NCBI GenBank assembly: GCA_023245355.1 | Contig: JAHFKN010000003.1 | Span: forward strand, 121,368 to 185,367 | Direction: 5' to 3' | Source: Candidatus Gottesmanbacteria bacterium | GTDB lineage: Bacteria > Patescibacteriota > Microgenomatia > UBA10105 > UBA927 | Length of the DNA stretch: 64,000 nt | Shown here: one piece after another, positions 1,938 to 64,000 of the stretch | Layout: every line of letters starts with the position of its first letter | How positions within the stretch are numbered: position 1 is the stretch's first letter | Notes under the pieces: model-generated | Told to the model about the DNA's origin: nothing | The model's input: the letters and a program-made list of their open reading frames with translations, nothing else | Databases searched by the model: none | Position numbers and translations under genes: made by a program

Positions 1938-3569
1938 GTGGAAAGAGTGAAACAAACCCGTGGTATTCATGATCTGATCCGGCGGTACGGCCTGTATGTA
2001 CTTCTTGTAGTCATATTGGGGATCGGAGCATGGTTTCGGTTTTTCCATATTTTCCGGTCCACCTGGATGCTGGAAGGATACGATGAGTCCCGCGACATGT
2101 TAGTTGCGCGCCACATTGTGGAGTACGGGGATTGGCTATGGCGCGGACCATTGGCTTCCGGGAGCATGAATGCGCTGATGAATTCTCCCGTGTACTACTA
2201 TGTGTTGTCCGTCCTTTGGTTTATCGGCAGATCGCCGTTTTCCGTCATGCTGCTGTGGGCGGCATTGCTTATGAGCGTCGTCTATATGGCATACAGGACA
2301 GGCGTTGAGGCCGGGGATAAACAGTTGGGGATTATCATGGCGCTGTTGTTTGCCCTGCAGCCGACGCTTATCAGCAACAGCAGGCATATCTCGCAGCCGT
2401 ACCTGTTGCCGTTATTTTCCATCCTGTTTTTATGGCTGTTCTGGCGGAGAGGAACGATGACGCTTTGGAGGTTTTGTCTGTTGATTGTCGTTCTTCTGTT
2501 TCCCATGCATATCCATTACGGAAGTCTGCTGATGCTTCCTGCCGGCCTCCTTTGGCTCGGGGTTGTATGGGCAGAGCACGCATTCCGGAAACAGGGAGGA
2601 TTGACATGGAAAATCATACCGCCTCTTGTTGTCGAGTATGTTCTGATGACATGGGTGTGGTTTACTTACGGGAAAACTCCGTTTGACCAGCAGTTTTATC
2701 TGGCTGACGAAATGCACCGGACATTACCCACTGTTCTTCTCAAAATGCGGGACGCGTGGATAGTGACGGCAGATAACATCTGGTGGTCCAAAGATCCCGT
2801 CGTTGTTATCGGCATGCTGATGTTTTTTGCGGGATGTGCCGTTTGGTACGAAAAACAGCGGACGCATCAGAAGCACTCGGGGAGCCGGTCATATTGGTGG
2901 ATGATCTGTTTTGCAGTAATTCCTCCTCTTGTTGCCGGGTTCCACGGGGACAGTGTTCATACCTATTATATGCTCGGCACGCTTCCGGTTCTTCTGTTTA
3001 TTATCGCGGCAGGATTGCATGCATTGCTCTCCTGGAACCGGTATGTGGGGATTGTGTGCATCGGCATCGTCCTATGGATATTTATAGAACAGGCGTCAAC
3101 GGTTATTACCGAGGTTCCGAGAAGACCGTATGTTCAGCAATTGCGGGAGGTGTCAAACATGCTGTATGACGATTACCGTTTTCGGGAGCCGGCAGCAGCG
3201 GGAACCCCCTCACCTTCTATCGCGCTTGCTGTGCTGGCCGGAAAGAACCTGCCGTACGACGGGTGGGGCACGGGGGCACTTTGGTATTTTTTGGAAGAGT
3301 ATTTCAAGCAACGGCTCGTGCGCCTGGATAATTACGGCACGAATTTTTTCCCCGTCGTACAACATCCTTCGTATTTTTACGTACTGTGTGATTACCGGGG
3401 GTTCGGGTCGGATGACAGATGCACGCGGGATTTTAGAGCAGCGAGAACGTATCTTCTGGACAAAAAAGAGGAAAAAATATACGCTGCCGGACCGTTCGTA
3501 TTATGGTTGTTTTACGTCAATCCGTCTCTGCCCGTTTCAAACTATAATATCGCGTATCCGGGATTATAA
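1938..3569 (+). CDS. GT-C fold glycosyltransferase, ArnT/PMT-like (paralog 1)
   Basis: 543-aa polytopic membrane protein. First extracytoplasmic loop carries YDESRDMLVARHIVEYGDW, resembling the DE...GDW motif of ArnT (GT83)/PMT (GT39). GTG start. Confidence 0.55.
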   Translation: MERVKQTRGIHDLIRRYGLYVLLVVILGIGAWFRFFHIFRSTWMLEGYDESRDMLVARHIVEYGDWLWRGPLASGSMNALMNSPVYYYVLSVLWFIGRSPFSVMLLWAALLMSVVYMAYRTGVEAGDKQLGIIMALLFALQPTLISNSRHISQPYLLPLFSILFLWLFWRRGTMTLWRFCLLIVVLLFPMHIHYGSLLMLPAGLLWLGVVWAEHAFRKQGGLTWKIIPPLVVEYVLMTWVWFTYGKTPFDQQFYLADEMHRTLPTVLLKMRDAWIVTADNIWWSKDPVVVIGMLMFFAGCAVWYEKQRTHQKHSGSRSYWWMICFAVIPPLVAGFHGDSVHTYYMLGTLPVLLFIIAAGLHALLSWNRYVGIVCIGIVLWIFIEQASTVITEVPRRPYVQQLREVSNMLYDDYRFREPAAAGTPSPSIALAVLAGKNLPYDGWGTGALWYFLEEYFKQRLVRLDNYGTNFFPVVQHPSYFYVLCDYRGFGSDDRCTRDFRAARTYLLDKKEEKIYAAGPFVLWLFYVNPSLPVSNYNIAYPGL

Positions 3570-59467: not shown

Positions 59468-59620
59468 AGAGAGATTATACCGCAACGAGTGCGTCGCTGT
59501 TATCTGGTTTTTCCGAGGAGATTTAGCATGCTCGCGCGAGTGGAGTGGAAGAATGAGAGTGGGTAAATAGGGCGTCAGGTTGAGATAATATGACAATAAT
59601 GTTTTAAATTACTGTTTTAG

Positions 59621-59629
59621 TGATATAAT
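59621..59629 (+). promoter_or_regulatory. Extended -10 promoter (TGATATAAT) for island operon
   Basis: Perfect extended -10 element 12 nt upstream of ATG 59641 with no SD sequence, implying a near-leaderless transcript. Confidence 0.4.
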
Positions 59630-59640
59630 TTTTATCGCCT

Positions 59641-60789
59641 ATGATAAAAAGCATCACTATCAATAATTTTAAAAGCATAATTAATTCTTCAATAAAATTT
59701 CCAGCTTTCGTAACAATAGCGGGCGAGAATGCTGTGGGCAAAACTAATCTTATTCAGTCTATTAAATTCTTAAAAAGTATTATTTTGGGAGCCTCAACGA
59801 ATGAGGCTCAAAAAAAGATTAGCTTAATTCCAAATGAACTATTTAATTTTACAGATAAGAACACAGAATTTTCTATACAAATTGTTGTAGAAACTAAAGA
59901 AGAGATTGAATATGAGTTTTATATAAAAGTTTCCTTAAAGAATGGATCTCCTGTTCCGCCCTTGCTACTAGTAAAACAAGAAAAGTTAATTCGCTACAGT
60001 AAAGAGCTGGGGAACCAAATTGTATACCTTCGTGAAGGCGGTGACTTTAAAGAAAAAGGAACTACACCATTCCCTTTAGCAGTTGAGCCAAATAAATTAG
60101 CATTATCAATCTATAAGAATCAGGACACAGATAATATTAAATATTTTTTTTCAAATCTAGTAATACCTGATTTTGAGGACATTAATAATCTCAACTCTAT
60201 TGGCATTGGGAAACAGGGCTCAACGAGTAGTGATTTAGCGGATATTCTTATTAACTTAAGTCATGGCAAGCCAGAAGTATATCAAGATTTCTTAAAGATA
60301 ACTAGAAAATTTATGCCCTATTTTTCTTCTTTCAACGAGATTCCGATGTCAAACACGAGTGACGAAAGCACAAAAGGAAATTTTTTGCTGGTTTTAGCTG
60401 AAAATAACCTAAAAGAAAGTCTTTCAATGCAATCCATATCAGCTGGAGACATAAGAACCTTATACTTAATAGCTAGTGCGTTGACGGTCGAAAATAATTC
60501 AAGTTTGATAATTGAGGAAATTGAAAATGGAATTCATCCGAAAAGAATTTTGGACTTGGTTGATCAGTTGGAAACCATAGCTAGGGTTAAAGATTTACAG
60601 ATCATTTTTACCACTCATAGTTCAATGCTAATTAACAAAATGCCAGTCACTAAAATTATTTTTGTACAAAAGAAAACTGATACTGGGACGCAGTTTCATT
60701 TACTAACCGACTCCGATCAAATAACTAAGATTCGAGATTATTTAGAGAATGGCGGAGACATAACGGATTATTTAAATAATCTTCGATAG
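59641..60789 (+). CDS. OLD/ABC-type AAA ATPase (AAA_15/AAA_21-like) of a candidate two-gene defence module
   Basis: N-terminal ITINNFKSI...VTIAGENAVGKTNLIQSI (Walker A), central coiled/insert region, ISAGDIRTL (signature-like), LIIEEIENGIHP (Walker B and D-loop), FTTHS (H-loop). AT-rich codon usage. Confidence 0.7.
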   Translation: MIKSITINNFKSIINSSIKFPAFVTIAGENAVGKTNLIQSIKFLKSIILGASTNEAQKKISLIPNELFNFTDKNTEFSIQIVVETKEEIEYEFYIKVSLKNGSPVPPLLLVKQEKLIRYSKELGNQIVYLREGGDFKEKGTTPFPLAVEPNKLALSIYKNQDTDNIKYFFSNLVIPDFEDINNLNSIGIGKQGSTSSDLADILINLSHGKPEVYQDFLKITRKFMPYFSSFNEIPMSNTSDESTKGNFLLVLAENNLKESLSMQSISAGDIRTLYLIASALTVENNSSLIIEEIENGIHPKRILDLVDQLETIARVKDLQIIFTTHSSMLINKMPVTKIIFVQKKTDTGTQFHLLTDSDQITKIRDYLENGGDITDYLNNLR

Positions 60790-60792
60790 CCT

Positions 60793-61377
60793 ATGAAAAT
60801 TGGCGTCCTTTATGAGGGAAAATTTGATGATAGAGCTATCAAAAGGATAATTATTAAGATTATTTTACAGAAGTATCCTCGTGTAGACCCTGCAGATATA
60901 GTATTTGTTACCAAATCGGGTGGAGGTAATATAGAAGGGCATATATATCCAGCAACGTCATTATTTTTTGTAGCGAATAATTGTGATTGTGCTATATACA
61001 TTTCTGATACTGATAATGGAGCAACGTCGGTGAGGAAAAAAATGCAAAGAGTCGCCGCAAAAGTAAAAAAAGCTGTGGAGGACTTAGCAAGAGGAGCACG
61101 AGTGGTAGTAGCTTGTCCAAAACCAGAACTGGAGCAGTGGTTTTTTGGAGATGAATTGACAATTAAGAGAGTATTGGAATTGCCAGAAACCGAACCGCTA
61201 AAATATCCTGAGATGGCGCCTAAGGATAGGTTGACTAAATTAATATTTGATTATAATAGTTATTTATTAACGCCAGTAGAGATTTACGAGAAAATAGCTA
61301 GTCATCTGGATTTAGCTAAATTAGATGATCACCGTAGTTTTAGAAAATTTCGCCTTGAGTTGTTGAGTAATATTTAA
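60793..61377 (+). CDS. Small TOPRIM-like protein (DUF4276/RloB-like) partner of the ATPase
   Basis: 194 aa. VLYEGKFDD (TOPRIM Glu), AIYISDTDNG (DxD), a later acidic ELEQW. Coupled to the ATPase with a 3-nt gap. AT-rich. Confidence 0.5.
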   Translation: MKIGVLYEGKFDDRAIKRIIIKIILQKYPRVDPADIVFVTKSGGGNIEGHIYPATSLFFVANNCDCAIYISDTDNGATSVRKKMQRVAAKVKKAVEDLARGARVVVACPKPELEQWFFGDELTIKRVLELPETEPLKYPEMAPKDRLTKLIFDYNSYLLTPVEIYEKIASHLDLAKLDDHRSFRKFRLELLSNI

Positions 61378-61476
61378 TCCCCTAACTTACCTAATTCCAC
61401 AAGAGGTTATGAATGTGATTGATTACGACTAAACAAGCGATTTTGTTAATACTTGAATTCACTTAGTAGTTTGGGT

Positions 61477-62715
61477 TTATTGCCACTTTTCCAGTGCCCG
61501 CTGAAGTTCAGGACTGTCTTTAGCTTCCGAGAGGGGAATACCGGCAAGAGTAGCTTTGAGCGACTGGACGATGGCGCGTGCTCCCGCGGGTGTACCGTCC
61601 GGGTGCCCGTGAATGCCGCCGCCGAAGTTCATCAGCAAATCCTTGCCGAGGATAGAAACCAGATCAGGAATGTGTCCCGGATGTAGTCCGCCCGATGCGG
61701 TAGGGAGTGTGGTTTTTAAGCCATACCATTCACTGCGCAGGAAATTATTAATCGTCACCACTTCTTCTTTGCCGCCTTCCATTTTCCCGACCACCGTACC
61801 TGTGTGGAATGAGTCGATACCGGCGAGTCTCGCCAGTTTAGCGATAACCAGCATGGAGATGCCATACTGCCGAGAGCGGGTAAATGCCGCGTGCATCGCG
61901 CGGTGCCCGTGGATCATGAGCCCGTAATTCCGGTTCCGTATCCCTTGGGTTGCCGCAAATCCTGCGGTGAGCACGTCAATCATCAGGCAGTTAGCGCCCG
62001 AGTCCCGCACGTAGTTAGCCCGTTTCATCATCTCTTCGTAGCTTGCTGTGATGTTAAACGCGTGGACTTTTGCCTTTCCGATCTCCAGATATCCTTTTTC
62101 TTTCATGCGGCTGGTGACTTCGTCTACCCGGGTGTAGAAACTATCAAACGTCATGTTGGCGAGGTTCTCGTCGTCTTTTACTAAGTTTACGCCGTTGTCC
62201 CATACTTCCATACATGCTTCTGCGTGACGCACGCTCGTAAGTCCCAGTTTGGGTTTGATGATGGAGCCGGTGAGCGGACCGTCTTTGACTCCGGTGAGAT
62301 TACGTATGCCGTCTATGCCGAGAGCCGGTCCCGGAAACGCCTTTACAAATACTTCAGGAAATTCCAAATCTTCGAGCCGGAGCCCCACGATTTCTTTGAG
62401 TCCGAATACGTTTCCCGTGATGGAGGAGAGAAGCTGGGGGACACTTCCTGCCTCAAACAGGTCCAAAGGATATGCGACAGTGATGCGTCCCGAATTTTCG
62501 TCCATGGCAATCACTTTGGCATGGAGTTTGTCCCAGATGTCTTTTTCTTCCAGTCCTGAGTCGGTCCACGTGCCGACGGAGGATTCTGCAGCGACGCCTC
62601 CTGCTGTTTTATCGAACGGTTCTCCCTCTACTTTGAGGGTAAAGGTGGCTACGATGTGTTTGGTTTTATCGACCGTTTCGTTTAATGCCAGATAGTTTTT
62701 ATACTGATTTGCCAT
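61477..62715 (-). CDS. rbcL: Ribulose-1,5-bisphosphate carboxylase large-subunit homolog, form III / II-III type
   Basis: Catalytic loop GSIIKPKLGL, KDDENL, and the C-terminal GGG..HGHP loop-6 region. 412 aa from ATG 62715 (MANQYKNYL); the ORF-track start is over-extended. Confidence 0.8.
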   Translation of the reverse strand: MANQYKNYLALNETVDKTKHIVATFTLKVEGEPFDKTAGGVAAESSVGTWTDSGLEEKDIWDKLHAKVIAMDENSGRITVAYPLDLFEAGSVPQLLSSITGNVFGLKEIVGLRLEDLEFPEVFVKAFPGPALGIDGIRNLTGVKDGPLTGSIIKPKLGLTSVRHAEACMEVWDNGVNLVKDDENLANMTFDSFYTRVDEVTSRMKEKGYLEIGKAKVHAFNITASYEEMMKRANYVRDSGANCLMIDVLTAGFAATQGIRNRNYGLMIHGHRAMHAAFTRSRQYGISMLVIAKLARLAGIDSFHTGTVVGKMEGGKEEVVTINNFLRSEWYGLKTTLPTASGGLHPGHIPDLVSILGKDLLMNFGGGIHGHPDGTPAGARAIVQSLKATLAGIPLSEAKDSPELQRALEKWQ

Positions 62716-63721
62716 AGTAGAGATGTTTGTCGTGTCCTTTGTCAAAAATAAACGGATAGCGCTTTTTGGTAGCCGCCAGCACCTGTTTGCCGGCAATCAC
62801 GCCGTCTTCACAGATTACTTTTATATTACTAAGATACGGCACATAATCAAAGGCCGGCGCGTAGAATTTGAGATTTGTAGGAGCATCGGCCCATATTTCG
62901 TCCGTGCTCCGCATTTCTATCATGGCCGGGGAAAAAGGTTTCGGGTCATACTTGAGAAGTGTTGTGAGCACATAGACGGGAATGTGTTTGCGTTTGGCGG
63001 CGGCAGAAACAGCCAGTGAGCCGATTTTGTTTACGAACCCCTTGTCATTGATAAGATCCGCTCCGATAAACACCGCGTCGATTTTGCCGATACGTCCCTC
63101 GATGAGCGCGACTGCGACATCGTCTACGACCATCGTCACATCGCTAAAACCCGCGGCGAGCAGTTCTTTGGCAGTCGTCCTGCCTTGGAACCGCGGCCGG
63201 GTTTCCGCGACATACACCGAGAAATATGCGCCCTTGCTGCGGGCCTCCGTAAACATGTTCACAGTCGTAGATGAATGACAAAGTGTAAGGTACACGCCGC
63301 CGTCCACAAGGAGCGGGGCCCCCAGAGCAGGAATAGTCTTTTTGCCGGCAGAAACATATTCCCTGTATTCTTCTATCCTATTTAGCGCTTCCGACGTACA
63401 CCCTAAGCTTACGAAGCGCACGGCGTTTTGTGCCAGCGGTTCGGTTGGGCGGGCGTATGCTAACCGCTCGCCTAATTTAGTCAGTTCATAGCAGGAGATG
63501 TCCGGATTGTTGTGCATGACGCCGGAGAGTGTATCGAGCACCTTGAGTGCGACGTTTGTCGCTCCCTGGACTTTGAGGGACTTGATGTCAGATTCTGCCG
63601 TATCTATAAAATCCGTCACTATTTTAGTGTAGGACAAATACGTGCCGGGGGCAATCCGATTCCGTGAGGTTTCTTTTGGGTTTTCCGGAAATGGCCGGAG
63701 CCGTGATACAATTCCAGTCAT
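62699..63721 (-). CDS. Ribose-1,5-bisphosphate isomerase (eIF-2B alpha/beta/delta / e2b2 family)
   Basis: eIF-2B-like fold motifs ([24 protein letters not shown]). 340 aa from ATG 63721. Stop overlaps the RuBisCO start by 17 nt. Confidence 0.6.
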
Positions 63722-64000
63722 GAACCTGAAGATCGGTATCGTCGGACTGCCAAATGCAGGCAAAAGCACGCTGTTTAACGCGCTGCTCAAAAAGCAGGTG
63801 GCATTTGCCGCCAACTATCCGTTTGCAACCATAGAGCCCAATATCGGCGTGGTTCCGGTGCCGGACGAACGGCTTGGGAAACTCGCGGAAACGACCAAAG
63901 CAGAAGACCATCTGGAAAAATTGCCGCCGCTTAGGCCCGCTACCGTCGAGTTTGTGGATATCGCGGGCCTCGTAAAGGGAGCAAGCGAGGGAGAGGGATT
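63720..64000 (+). CDS. ychF: Ribosome-binding ATPase YchF (Obg-family GTPase), N-terminal fragment running off window end
   Basis: Hand translation [52 protein letters not shown]... is diagnostic of YchF. Absent from the ORF track because there is no stop within the window. Confidence 0.7.

Follow-up and report, generated by a model that had tools for sequence, protein, structure and literature searches.

A horizontally acquired ABC ATPase-DUF4276 gene cassette of the HEC-01 type as a candidate ATPase-controlled nuclease module in Candidatus Gottesmanbacteria

In a 64,000-nt stretch of DNA from a Candidatus Gottesmanbacteria bacterium (assembly GCA_023245355.1, contig JAHFKN010000003.1, positions 121,368 to 185,367 of the forward strand), hereafter called the window and numbered from its first letter, two adjacent genes code for an ATP-binding cassette (ABC)-type ATPase and a small protein of the DUF4276 family. 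The two genes constitute an accessory cassette that was horizontally acquired, they are inherited strictly together as one unit, and they represent a divergent clade, apparently associated with the Candidate Phyla Radiation (CPR), of the HEC-01/DUF4276 class of candidate systems that has been catalogued before. Catalytic-type residues, as judged from family alignments, are conserved in both proteins. The reading that we favor, and that seems to us rather probable, is that of a self-contained, horizontally acquired cassette of the HEC-01 type in which the ATPase controls a TOPRIM nuclease, leading to destruction of an invader or to abortive infection. An initial annotation of the window had already pointed to this pair as a possible anti-phage or abortive-infection module, and the two open reading frames (ORFs), the 3-nt gap between them and all motifs quoted there are indeed present.

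Organization of the cassette

The island and its two genes are located as follows.

59597..61476 (no strand): accessory island, AT-rich and 1,880 bp long, that holds nothing but the two-gene cassette and is bordered by the genes for DUF167 and the RuBisCO-like protein
59641..60789 (+): gene for a HEC-01A-like ABC-type (AAA_21/AAA_15) ATPase of 382 amino acids, assigned by Pfam and PADLOC profile searches
60793..61377 (+): gene for a DUF4276-family, TOPRIM-like predicted metal-dependent nuclease, HEC-01B-like, of 194 amino acids

Both ORFs start with ATG and lie on the same strand. The ATPase gene ends with the stop codon TAG at 60787-60789 and is followed by a gap of 3 nt, through which the gene for the small protein is probably translationally coupled to that of the ATPase. 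The longest open frame in the island has 386 codons, and 500 composition-preserving shuffles of the island gave longest frames of 80 codons on average and of 185 codons at maximum; as the longest frame far exceeds the shuffled maximum, the ORFs of the cassette are more than a product of chance. The segment 59000-61700 is base-for-base the same in three other public assemblies, and the sharp guanine-plus-cytosine (GC) junctions are therefore no assembly chimera.

The ATPase belongs to the AAA_15/AAA_21 group

In Pfam searches, the 382-residue protein matches AAA_21 (81 bits, 1.9e-22) and AAA_15 (55 bits, 1.5e-14), exceeding the cut-off in both cases. The AAA_15/AAA_21 group of ATPases includes OLD, Gabija GajA, PARIS AriA and AbiLi, and the description of the protein as an OLD/ABC-type ATPase in the initial annotation is borne out, the protein being of the OLD/PARIS/AbiL type. 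The best models in PADLOC are PDC-M07A (4e-32), HEC-01A (4e-30) and AbiLi (3e-29), further matches being AriA (1e-21), NsnB (1e-21), Old (8e-18), GajA (3e-16) and, weakly, PtuA (2.5e-15). PDC-M07A marginally outscores HEC-01A; the HEC-01A model in question, PDLC04176, aligns with residues 2-353 over profile positions 3-342 of 371, and nine more HEC-01A models match as well. Among named NCBIfam models, MAD3 is the best match, reaching 75.7 bits versus an equivalog cut-off of 420.

Homologues of the ATPase (n = 38) share 36-55% identity and are about 380 amino acids long. An insert of about 175 amino acids (residues 76-250) lies between the two nucleotide-binding lobes, which comprise about residues 1-75 and 251-345. 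Conservation of individual residues was judged from an alignment of 31 members of the clade, in which mean column entropy amounts to 1.4 and 1.2 bits for the lobes versus 2.0 bits for the insert. The motifs of the two lobes, with the residues that are invariant in this alignment, are the following.

59722..59748 (+): Walker A or P-loop motif GENAVGKTN, residues 28-36; G28, N30, G33, K34, T35 and N36 invariant
60439..60450 (+): ABC signature-like motif SAGD, residues 267-270; S267, G269 and D270 invariant
60505..60540 (+): Walker B motif and following segment LIIEEIENGIHP, residues 289-300; E292, E293, I294, E295, N296 and H299 invariant
60607..60621 (+): H-loop FTTHS, residues 323-327 (TTHS, residues 324-327); T325 and H326 invariant

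Just upstream of the H-loop, Q320 is likewise invariant. The acidic pair of Walker B consists of two glutamates (IIEEIENGxHP) in 31 of the 31 homologues, the usual pair being Asp-Glu.

The small protein is a divergent DUF4276 member with TOPRIM-like features

DUF4276 (PF14103) is the sole credible Pfam family for the 194-residue protein, and PF14103 is also listed for it in precomputed database annotation. The match comprises residues 63-190 and profile positions 54-191 of 192. Five HEC-01B models match the protein with values from 5.4e-6 to 1.5e-3, which is weak and concerns only about residues 62-191; in PADLOC, PDC-M25B matches too, and the best named NCBIfam match is MAD4 (E 1.3e-6, 28.7 bits versus a cut-off of 160). 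While a word-indexed homologue search with this protein retrieved only the protein itself, an exhaustive search yielded 131 cluster representatives at E <= 1e-3; the clade thus escapes word-based searches, and it escapes the Pfam threshold as well. DUF4276 is matched at E <= 1e-3 by 37 of 107 relatives, and any other family by none of the 107. On the basis of these profiles, the small protein is classified as a divergent member of DUF4276, in agreement with the label "DUF4276-like" that it had received in the initial annotation. There it had also been suspected to be an uncharacterized minimal variant. The median length of the family is 195 amino acids, the Pfam model for DUF4276 has 192 positions, and the architecture is catalogued as HEC-01; a length of 194 amino acids is normal for DUF4276/HEC-01 and the pair is therefore no new minimal variant.

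Across 107 family members, E8, D72, E114, and K144 are invariant, and G4, D12, D74, W116, P143, and F183 are conserved in at least 90%. The glutamate of VLYEGKFDD (residues 5-13) and the DxD of ISDTDNG (residues 70-76), which had been picked by eye in the initial annotation, are thus invariant or nearly so, and in a structural model they occupy the positions of the TOPRIM catalytic residues. This AlphaFold (AF2) model, built on a 15-sequence alignment, has a pLDDT score of 89 and a predicted template modelling (pTM) score of 0.86, the single-sequence run having given a pLDDT of 40. In the model, strands 2-7, 37-42, 66-70, and 103-107 alternate with helices, and the C-terminal region is helical. 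The predicted four-strand α/β core carries a Glu after strand 1 and a DxD after strand 3, as is the case in TOPRIM. The codons for the putative catalytic residues are given below.

60814..60828 (+): codons for E8 to D12 (EGKFD); the TOPRIM Glu lies right after strand 1 and the acidic D12 four positions on
61006..61014 (+): codons for the DxD D72-T73-D74, right after strand 3 (66-70)
61132..61134 (+): codon for the invariant E114, at the start of the first helix (112-118) after strand 4
61222..61224 (+): codon for the invariant K144, in helix 143-154 of the C-terminal helical region

For the OLD protein of B. pseudomallei, the two-metal catalytic set consists of E400, E404, D455, D457, E508, and K562. 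The order E8, D12, D72, D74, E114, and K144 parallels this set by order and secondary-structure placement only, and the spacing of four between E8 and D12 is that between E400 and E404. By this analogy, we propose that E114 may be a ligand of the second metal and the counterpart of E508, and that K144 may, by its order only, correspond to the catalytic K562. Published analyses independently place DUF4276 and HEC-01B in the Toprim superfamily, and for a lactococcal PARIS AriB protein, PH0156 is reported to be the structure matched best. A Foldseek comparison of the AF2 model with viral models gave no significant match, and a PDB sequence-profile search with the alignment of the small-protein family gave noise only.

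The two genes travel together between unrelated genomic contexts

In nine of nine distinct contexts, i.e., the window and eight others, the ATPase gene is followed by the gene for a same-family partner at a distance of -4 to +29 nt, and the partners in the homologous contexts have 190-202 amino acids. Pairwise identities of the ATPase and of its partner co-vary across loci (r = 0.83), and the GC content of the cassette is 28-36% across loci irrespective of that of the host. The flanking genes are unrelated between loci; they include MurC and GyrB, DnaG and Ddl, or RecX, and in three further loci genes of a mobile or phage-like kind. In L006 (5536-8168) a Bro-N gene is found upstream and a holin-like gene downstream, in L010 (10871-12944) helix-turn-helix genes and a phage integrase gene are situated 4-5 kb downstream, and in L008 (3863-5701) a gene for a fusion of LexA and an N6-methyltransferase of Eco57I type is located upstream. 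One ATPase homologue is labelled Candidatus Peregrinibacteria, and so far the clade has been encountered only in uncultured, low-GC, CPR-like genomes.

Scanning IMG/VR with the ATPase alignment retrieved only distant ATPases of about 500 amino acids, none of them with a same-family partner, and PHROGs contributed only unnamed ATPase families. Many of the viral contigs (loci L047-L102 from IMG/VR) encode AAA_15/AAA_21 ATPases of about 490-516 amino acids, the C-terminal 200 or so of which match nothing in Pfam and bear no resemblance to the DUF4276-like family. These viral proteins may constitute a separate, phage-borne family of fused ATPase-effectors.

The cassette occupies a foreign island in a housekeeping region

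The cassette has a GC content of 0.334, as compared with 0.500 in the remainder of the window, and z is -10.3 when all other segments of 1,737 bp serve as reference. It is flanked by genes for Dus, a ferric-reductase-like protein, DUF167, a RuBisCO-like protein, and an IF-2B-like protein. Genes in genome bins of Candidatus Gottesmanbacteria share 89-96% identity with the RuBisCO-like gene, and the host therefore is a bacterium of the CPR/Patescibacteria, in line with the initial annotation, which spoke of a housekeeping region of a tiny-genome organism. In the related genome L011 (7308-7314), 6 nt separate the RuBisCO stop codon and the DUF167 gene, which represents an exact empty site. The deviating composition and the empty site in a relative mark the cassette as foreign to the genome, and the empty site in a close relative together with the filled site here provides a before-and-after pair that records the recent entry of genes into a streamlined genome.

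None of the related Gottesmanbacteria genomes that were compared at this slot contains the cassette. In L012, L014, L015, and L024 the slot is filled by a gene that has native GC and codes for a DUF4010/MgtC membrane protein (slot coordinates L012:7134-9519, L014:7290-9114, and L024:7314-8776), and in L019 (7236-10539) other genes take up 3.3 kb. This stretch between the RuBisCO-like and DUF167 genes may be a local hotspot of gene gain and loss. In the same slot of L012, from the Gottesmanbacteria UBA5942, a 284-residue cysteine-rich ORF (CPFC...CSGC; L012:7211-8065, minus strand) lies in a stretch of lower GC; it matches no Pfam family and may represent a further accessory gene. At the borders of the island in the window, no flanking direct repeats, tRNA, integrase, or terminator were found.

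These data bear on the question of whether the cassette might instead be a core-genome housekeeping pair for DNA repair or chromosome maintenance, i.e., a RecF/SbcC/Rad50-like ATPase with a TOPRIM nuclease. The N-terminal part of the ATPase does match RecF (E 6e-8, residues 2-46), RecN, SMC_N, and Rad50 weakly. However, such matches are confined to the P-loop region, RecF reaching 32.3 bits versus 172 and SMC_N 29.8 versus 40, and models of transporter ATP-binding subunits give about 21 bits where more than 280 would be required, so that a confident assignment to a housekeeping ATPase family such as RecF or a transporter, which the initial annotation had named as the finding that would speak against its proposal, was not obtained. 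Furthermore, the closest Gottesmanbacteria genomes are devoid of the cassette, one of them showing the exact empty site, the GC content of the cassette is 17 points below that of the genome, and its homologues reside in unrelated contexts. We regard the housekeeping explanation as largely refuted and its probability as very slight indeed.

Relationship to known ATPase-TOPRIM systems

The closest relative among catalogued systems is HEC-01 (Hma-embedded candidate 01 of PADLOC), which pairs an ABC ATPase with a TOPRIM protein and came to light within Hma systems (Payne et al. bioRxiv 10.1101/2024.01.29.577857). In both cases an ABC ATPase gene and, adjacent on the same strand, a gene for a TOPRIM/DUF4276 protein of about 200 amino acids follow each other, the proteins of the window match HEC-01A and HEC-01B, and the metal-binding TOPRIM site described for HEC-01 is present. 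The window sequences differ from HEC-01 in being very divergent, with a HEC-01B match of 5e-6 that is limited to residues 70-191 and a DUF4276 match below the cut-off, in having EE rather than DE in Walker B of the ATPase, and in their location, since the cassette stands alone among CPR housekeeping genes and outside any Hma system.

PARIS, i.e., AriA with the DUF4435 protein AriB or OLD "class 4", resembles the cassette in that ATPase and TOPRIM are split over two adjacent genes, and AriA is among the PADLOC matches of the ATPase. Yet the partner in the window is a DUF4276 protein and has no match to DUF4435 or AriB at E <= 1 in Pfam or PADLOC. It measures 194 amino acids, whereas AriB has about 35 kDa, and the ATPase measures 382 amino acids, whereas AriA has about 53-55 kDa. 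As a DUF4435/AriB partner is missing, membership in PARIS was rejected.

P2 Old (OLD class 1) and Gabija GajA (class 2) belong to the same ATPase group as the cassette and, like it, have a TOPRIM core with a helical region; in the small protein, the conserved acidic residues and the lysine come in the order known from the two-metal site of B. pseudomallei OLD. In contrast to these, ATPase and TOPRIM are encoded by separate genes in the window and the island contains no GajB helicase. The 194-residue protein has no match to OLD-like_TOPRIM in Pfam, and, with two ORFs, no helicase in the island, and no such match, assignment to the fused OLD classes 1-3 was discarded.

AbiL, too, is a two-gene arrangement of an ATPase and a partner from the TOPRIM superfamily, to which RloB also has been assigned, and AbiLi is one of the three best PADLOC matches of the ATPase; the partner in the window has no match to RloB or AbiLii in Pfam or PADLOC, and AbiL was dismissed on this ground. 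Septu was dismissed likewise, the partner having no HNH or PtuB match and the PtuA match of the ATPase being weak. In Menshen, an ABC ATPase, to which the NsnB match corresponds, goes together with a DUF4276/Toprim effector domain; there, however, DUF4276 is fused to the C-terminus of NsnC within a three-gene system, whereas in the window it is a free-standing protein encoded by one of two genes.

Finally, Mad4 of the methylation-associated defence system (MADS) has been cited as a homologue of DUF4276, and the best named NCBIfam matches of the two proteins are the MAD3 ATPase and the DUF4276 protein MAD4. The other mad genes, including that for the methyltransferase, occur neither in the island nor in its flanks, and membership in MADS was rejected because of this absence and because the scores for MAD3 and MAD4 fall far short of the equivalog level. 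Combinations of an ABC ATPase with DUF4276/TOPRIM are thus known as HEC-01, Mad3/Mad4, and Menshen, and the cassette presents no new architecture. Pairs of ATPase and TOPRIM are a well-known theme (OLD, Gabija, PARIS, AbiL, MADS, and Menshen), and no new principle is added here.

One might ask whether the pair is a detached fragment of a larger system, for example MADS (mad1-8), a type I restriction-modification system with RloA/RloB-like proteins, or Hma, and does not work alone. The affinity to MAD3 and MAD4, the discovery of HEC-01 within Hma systems, and the LexA-N6_Mtase-Eco57I-type gene next to the cassette in L008 would fit such an origin. In opposition to it, the scores for MAD3 and MAD4 (75.7 versus 420 and 28.7 versus 160 bits) remain far from the equivalog level, neighbors of methyltransferase, restriction, or helicase type are missing from eight of the nine contexts, the gene pair is the only unit conserved across contexts, and the island of the window holds nothing else. 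We therefore consider a detached fragment very unlikely, if less so than a housekeeping pair.

Possible function and mechanism

A mechanism for an ATPase-controlled nuclease cassette can be proposed by analogy with PARIS and OLD/Gabija, of which PARIS, with a nuclease kept inactive until a trigger releases it, offers the best precedent. An oligomer of the ATPase probably holds the nuclease inactive and senses the invader, with the variable middle insert of the ATPase probably serving as sensing surface. Binding of ATP, its hydrolysis, or binding of the trigger would then free or activate the TOPRIM partner. The partner would cut nucleic acid by two-metal catalysis, in which E8, D72, and D74 might bind one metal, D12 and E114 the other, and K144 might assist. 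Candidate substrates are DNA, as for OLD/Gabija, or tRNA, as for PARIS AriB, and the cutting would either destroy the invader or shut the cell down, resulting in abortive infection.

Several observations weigh against this explanation. The one HEC-01 representative that was tested in E. coli gave protection against none of the phages tried. The Pfam score of the small protein for DUF4276 (28.4 bits, E 2.3e-6) falls short of the gathering cut-off of 30.2. As to the TOPRIM fold anticipated in the initial annotation, the layout of strands, Glu and DxD in the AF2 model and the DUF4276 profile speak for it, but a Foldseek search of the model against the PDB gave no match at E <= 1e-3 and did not single out TOPRIM, and hhalign of the small-protein family with P2 Old reached a probability of 3%, which is not significant, aligning just the hhxEG motif, inside the Old TOPRIM domain. 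Support from structure searches for a TOPRIM fold in the modelled protein may be called only moderate. Across contexts, the cassette is found mostly among housekeeping genes and not in recognizable defence islands, a methyltransferase-type neighbor occurring in one of nine contexts (L008) and the other eight being free of methyltransferase, restriction, and helicase genes. With either protein as query, tblastn searches of phage and plasmid collections gave no match. We infer an anti-phage role of the cassette and its clade by analogy, and in view of the HEC-01 representative that protected against no phage tried, the anti-phage or abortive-infection function put forward in the initial annotation has not advanced beyond this status.

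The same failure of a tested HEC-01 to protect E. coli keeps alive another explanation, namely that the cassette is a selfish addiction module resembling a toxin-antitoxin (TA) pair, in which a TOPRIM toxin is neutralized by the ATPase, or the reverse, and which would persist since its loss is lethal to the cell and have no dedicated anti-phage role. Pfam describes AAA_21 as "putative AbiEii toxin, Type IV TA system"; small stand-alone islands of foreign composition within housekeeping regions would suit such a module, and tight coupling and co-inheritance fit a toxin-neutralizer pair. On the other hand, the motifs for ATP hydrolysis are intact and invariant, which points to an active sensor or motor over a simple antidote, and the related pairs of PARIS and, within MADS, of Mad3/Mad4 have been reported as components of defence. 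A role in addiction does not preclude one in abortive-infection defence. Taken together, a purely selfish module appears improbable to us, although clearly less so than a detached fragment.

A more specific version of the defence reading would see in the cassette an active, stand-alone, PARIS-like immune system of ultra-small, episymbiotic CPR bacteria, in which a DUF4276 nuclease caged by the ATPase oligomer is released when a phage protein is sensed and cuts tRNA or other RNA instead of DNA. Based on analogy with PARIS, this is a speculative possibility, to which we give about the same weight as to an addiction module. If it were true, it would provide a first function and mechanism for HEC-01/DUF4276, define a further split class of OLD-like systems, and add a defence system to a lineage with very few known.

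Very few defence systems are recognized in CPR genomes. If active as an ATPase-controlled nuclease, the cassette would represent a compact defence or abortive-infection module in these bacteria and, with about 1.9 kb, a minimal example for working out the function of the HEC-01/DUF4276 class.

Start-site signals and neighboring genes

Direct reading of the sequence upstream of the cassette reveals one candidate promoter element.

59621..59629 (+): TGaTATAAT, a possible promoter element of the extended -10 type, located 11 nt 5' of the ATPase start codon

Between this element and the start codon of the ATPase gene, no Shine-Dalgarno sequence is seen by direct reading, and the closeness of a -10 element to a start codon without Shine-Dalgarno sequence suggests that the transcript of the ATPase gene may be near-leaderless. 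A consensus promoter scan missed the element because a -35 element is lacking. The start-codon context GCCTATGAnAA is common to both genes of the cassette (stretches 59621-59641, which includes the -10 element, and 60786-60799).

On the minus strand at 61477-63814, a gene for a RuBisCO large-subunit-like protein has directly behind it an IF-2B/e2b2-like gene, which probably codes for ribose-1,5-bisphosphate isomerase. Together they make up the nucleoside or AMP salvage pair of the archaeal/CPR type, and their adjacency is kept in related Gottesmanbacteria genome bins. The longest ORFs of this pair overlap by about 98 nt; the RuBisCO gene as called has 412 amino acids, and its true start is probably an internal Met (MANQYKNY). 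A second GC dip of the window, near position 3450, contains only large membrane proteins, which have no kinship to the cassette.

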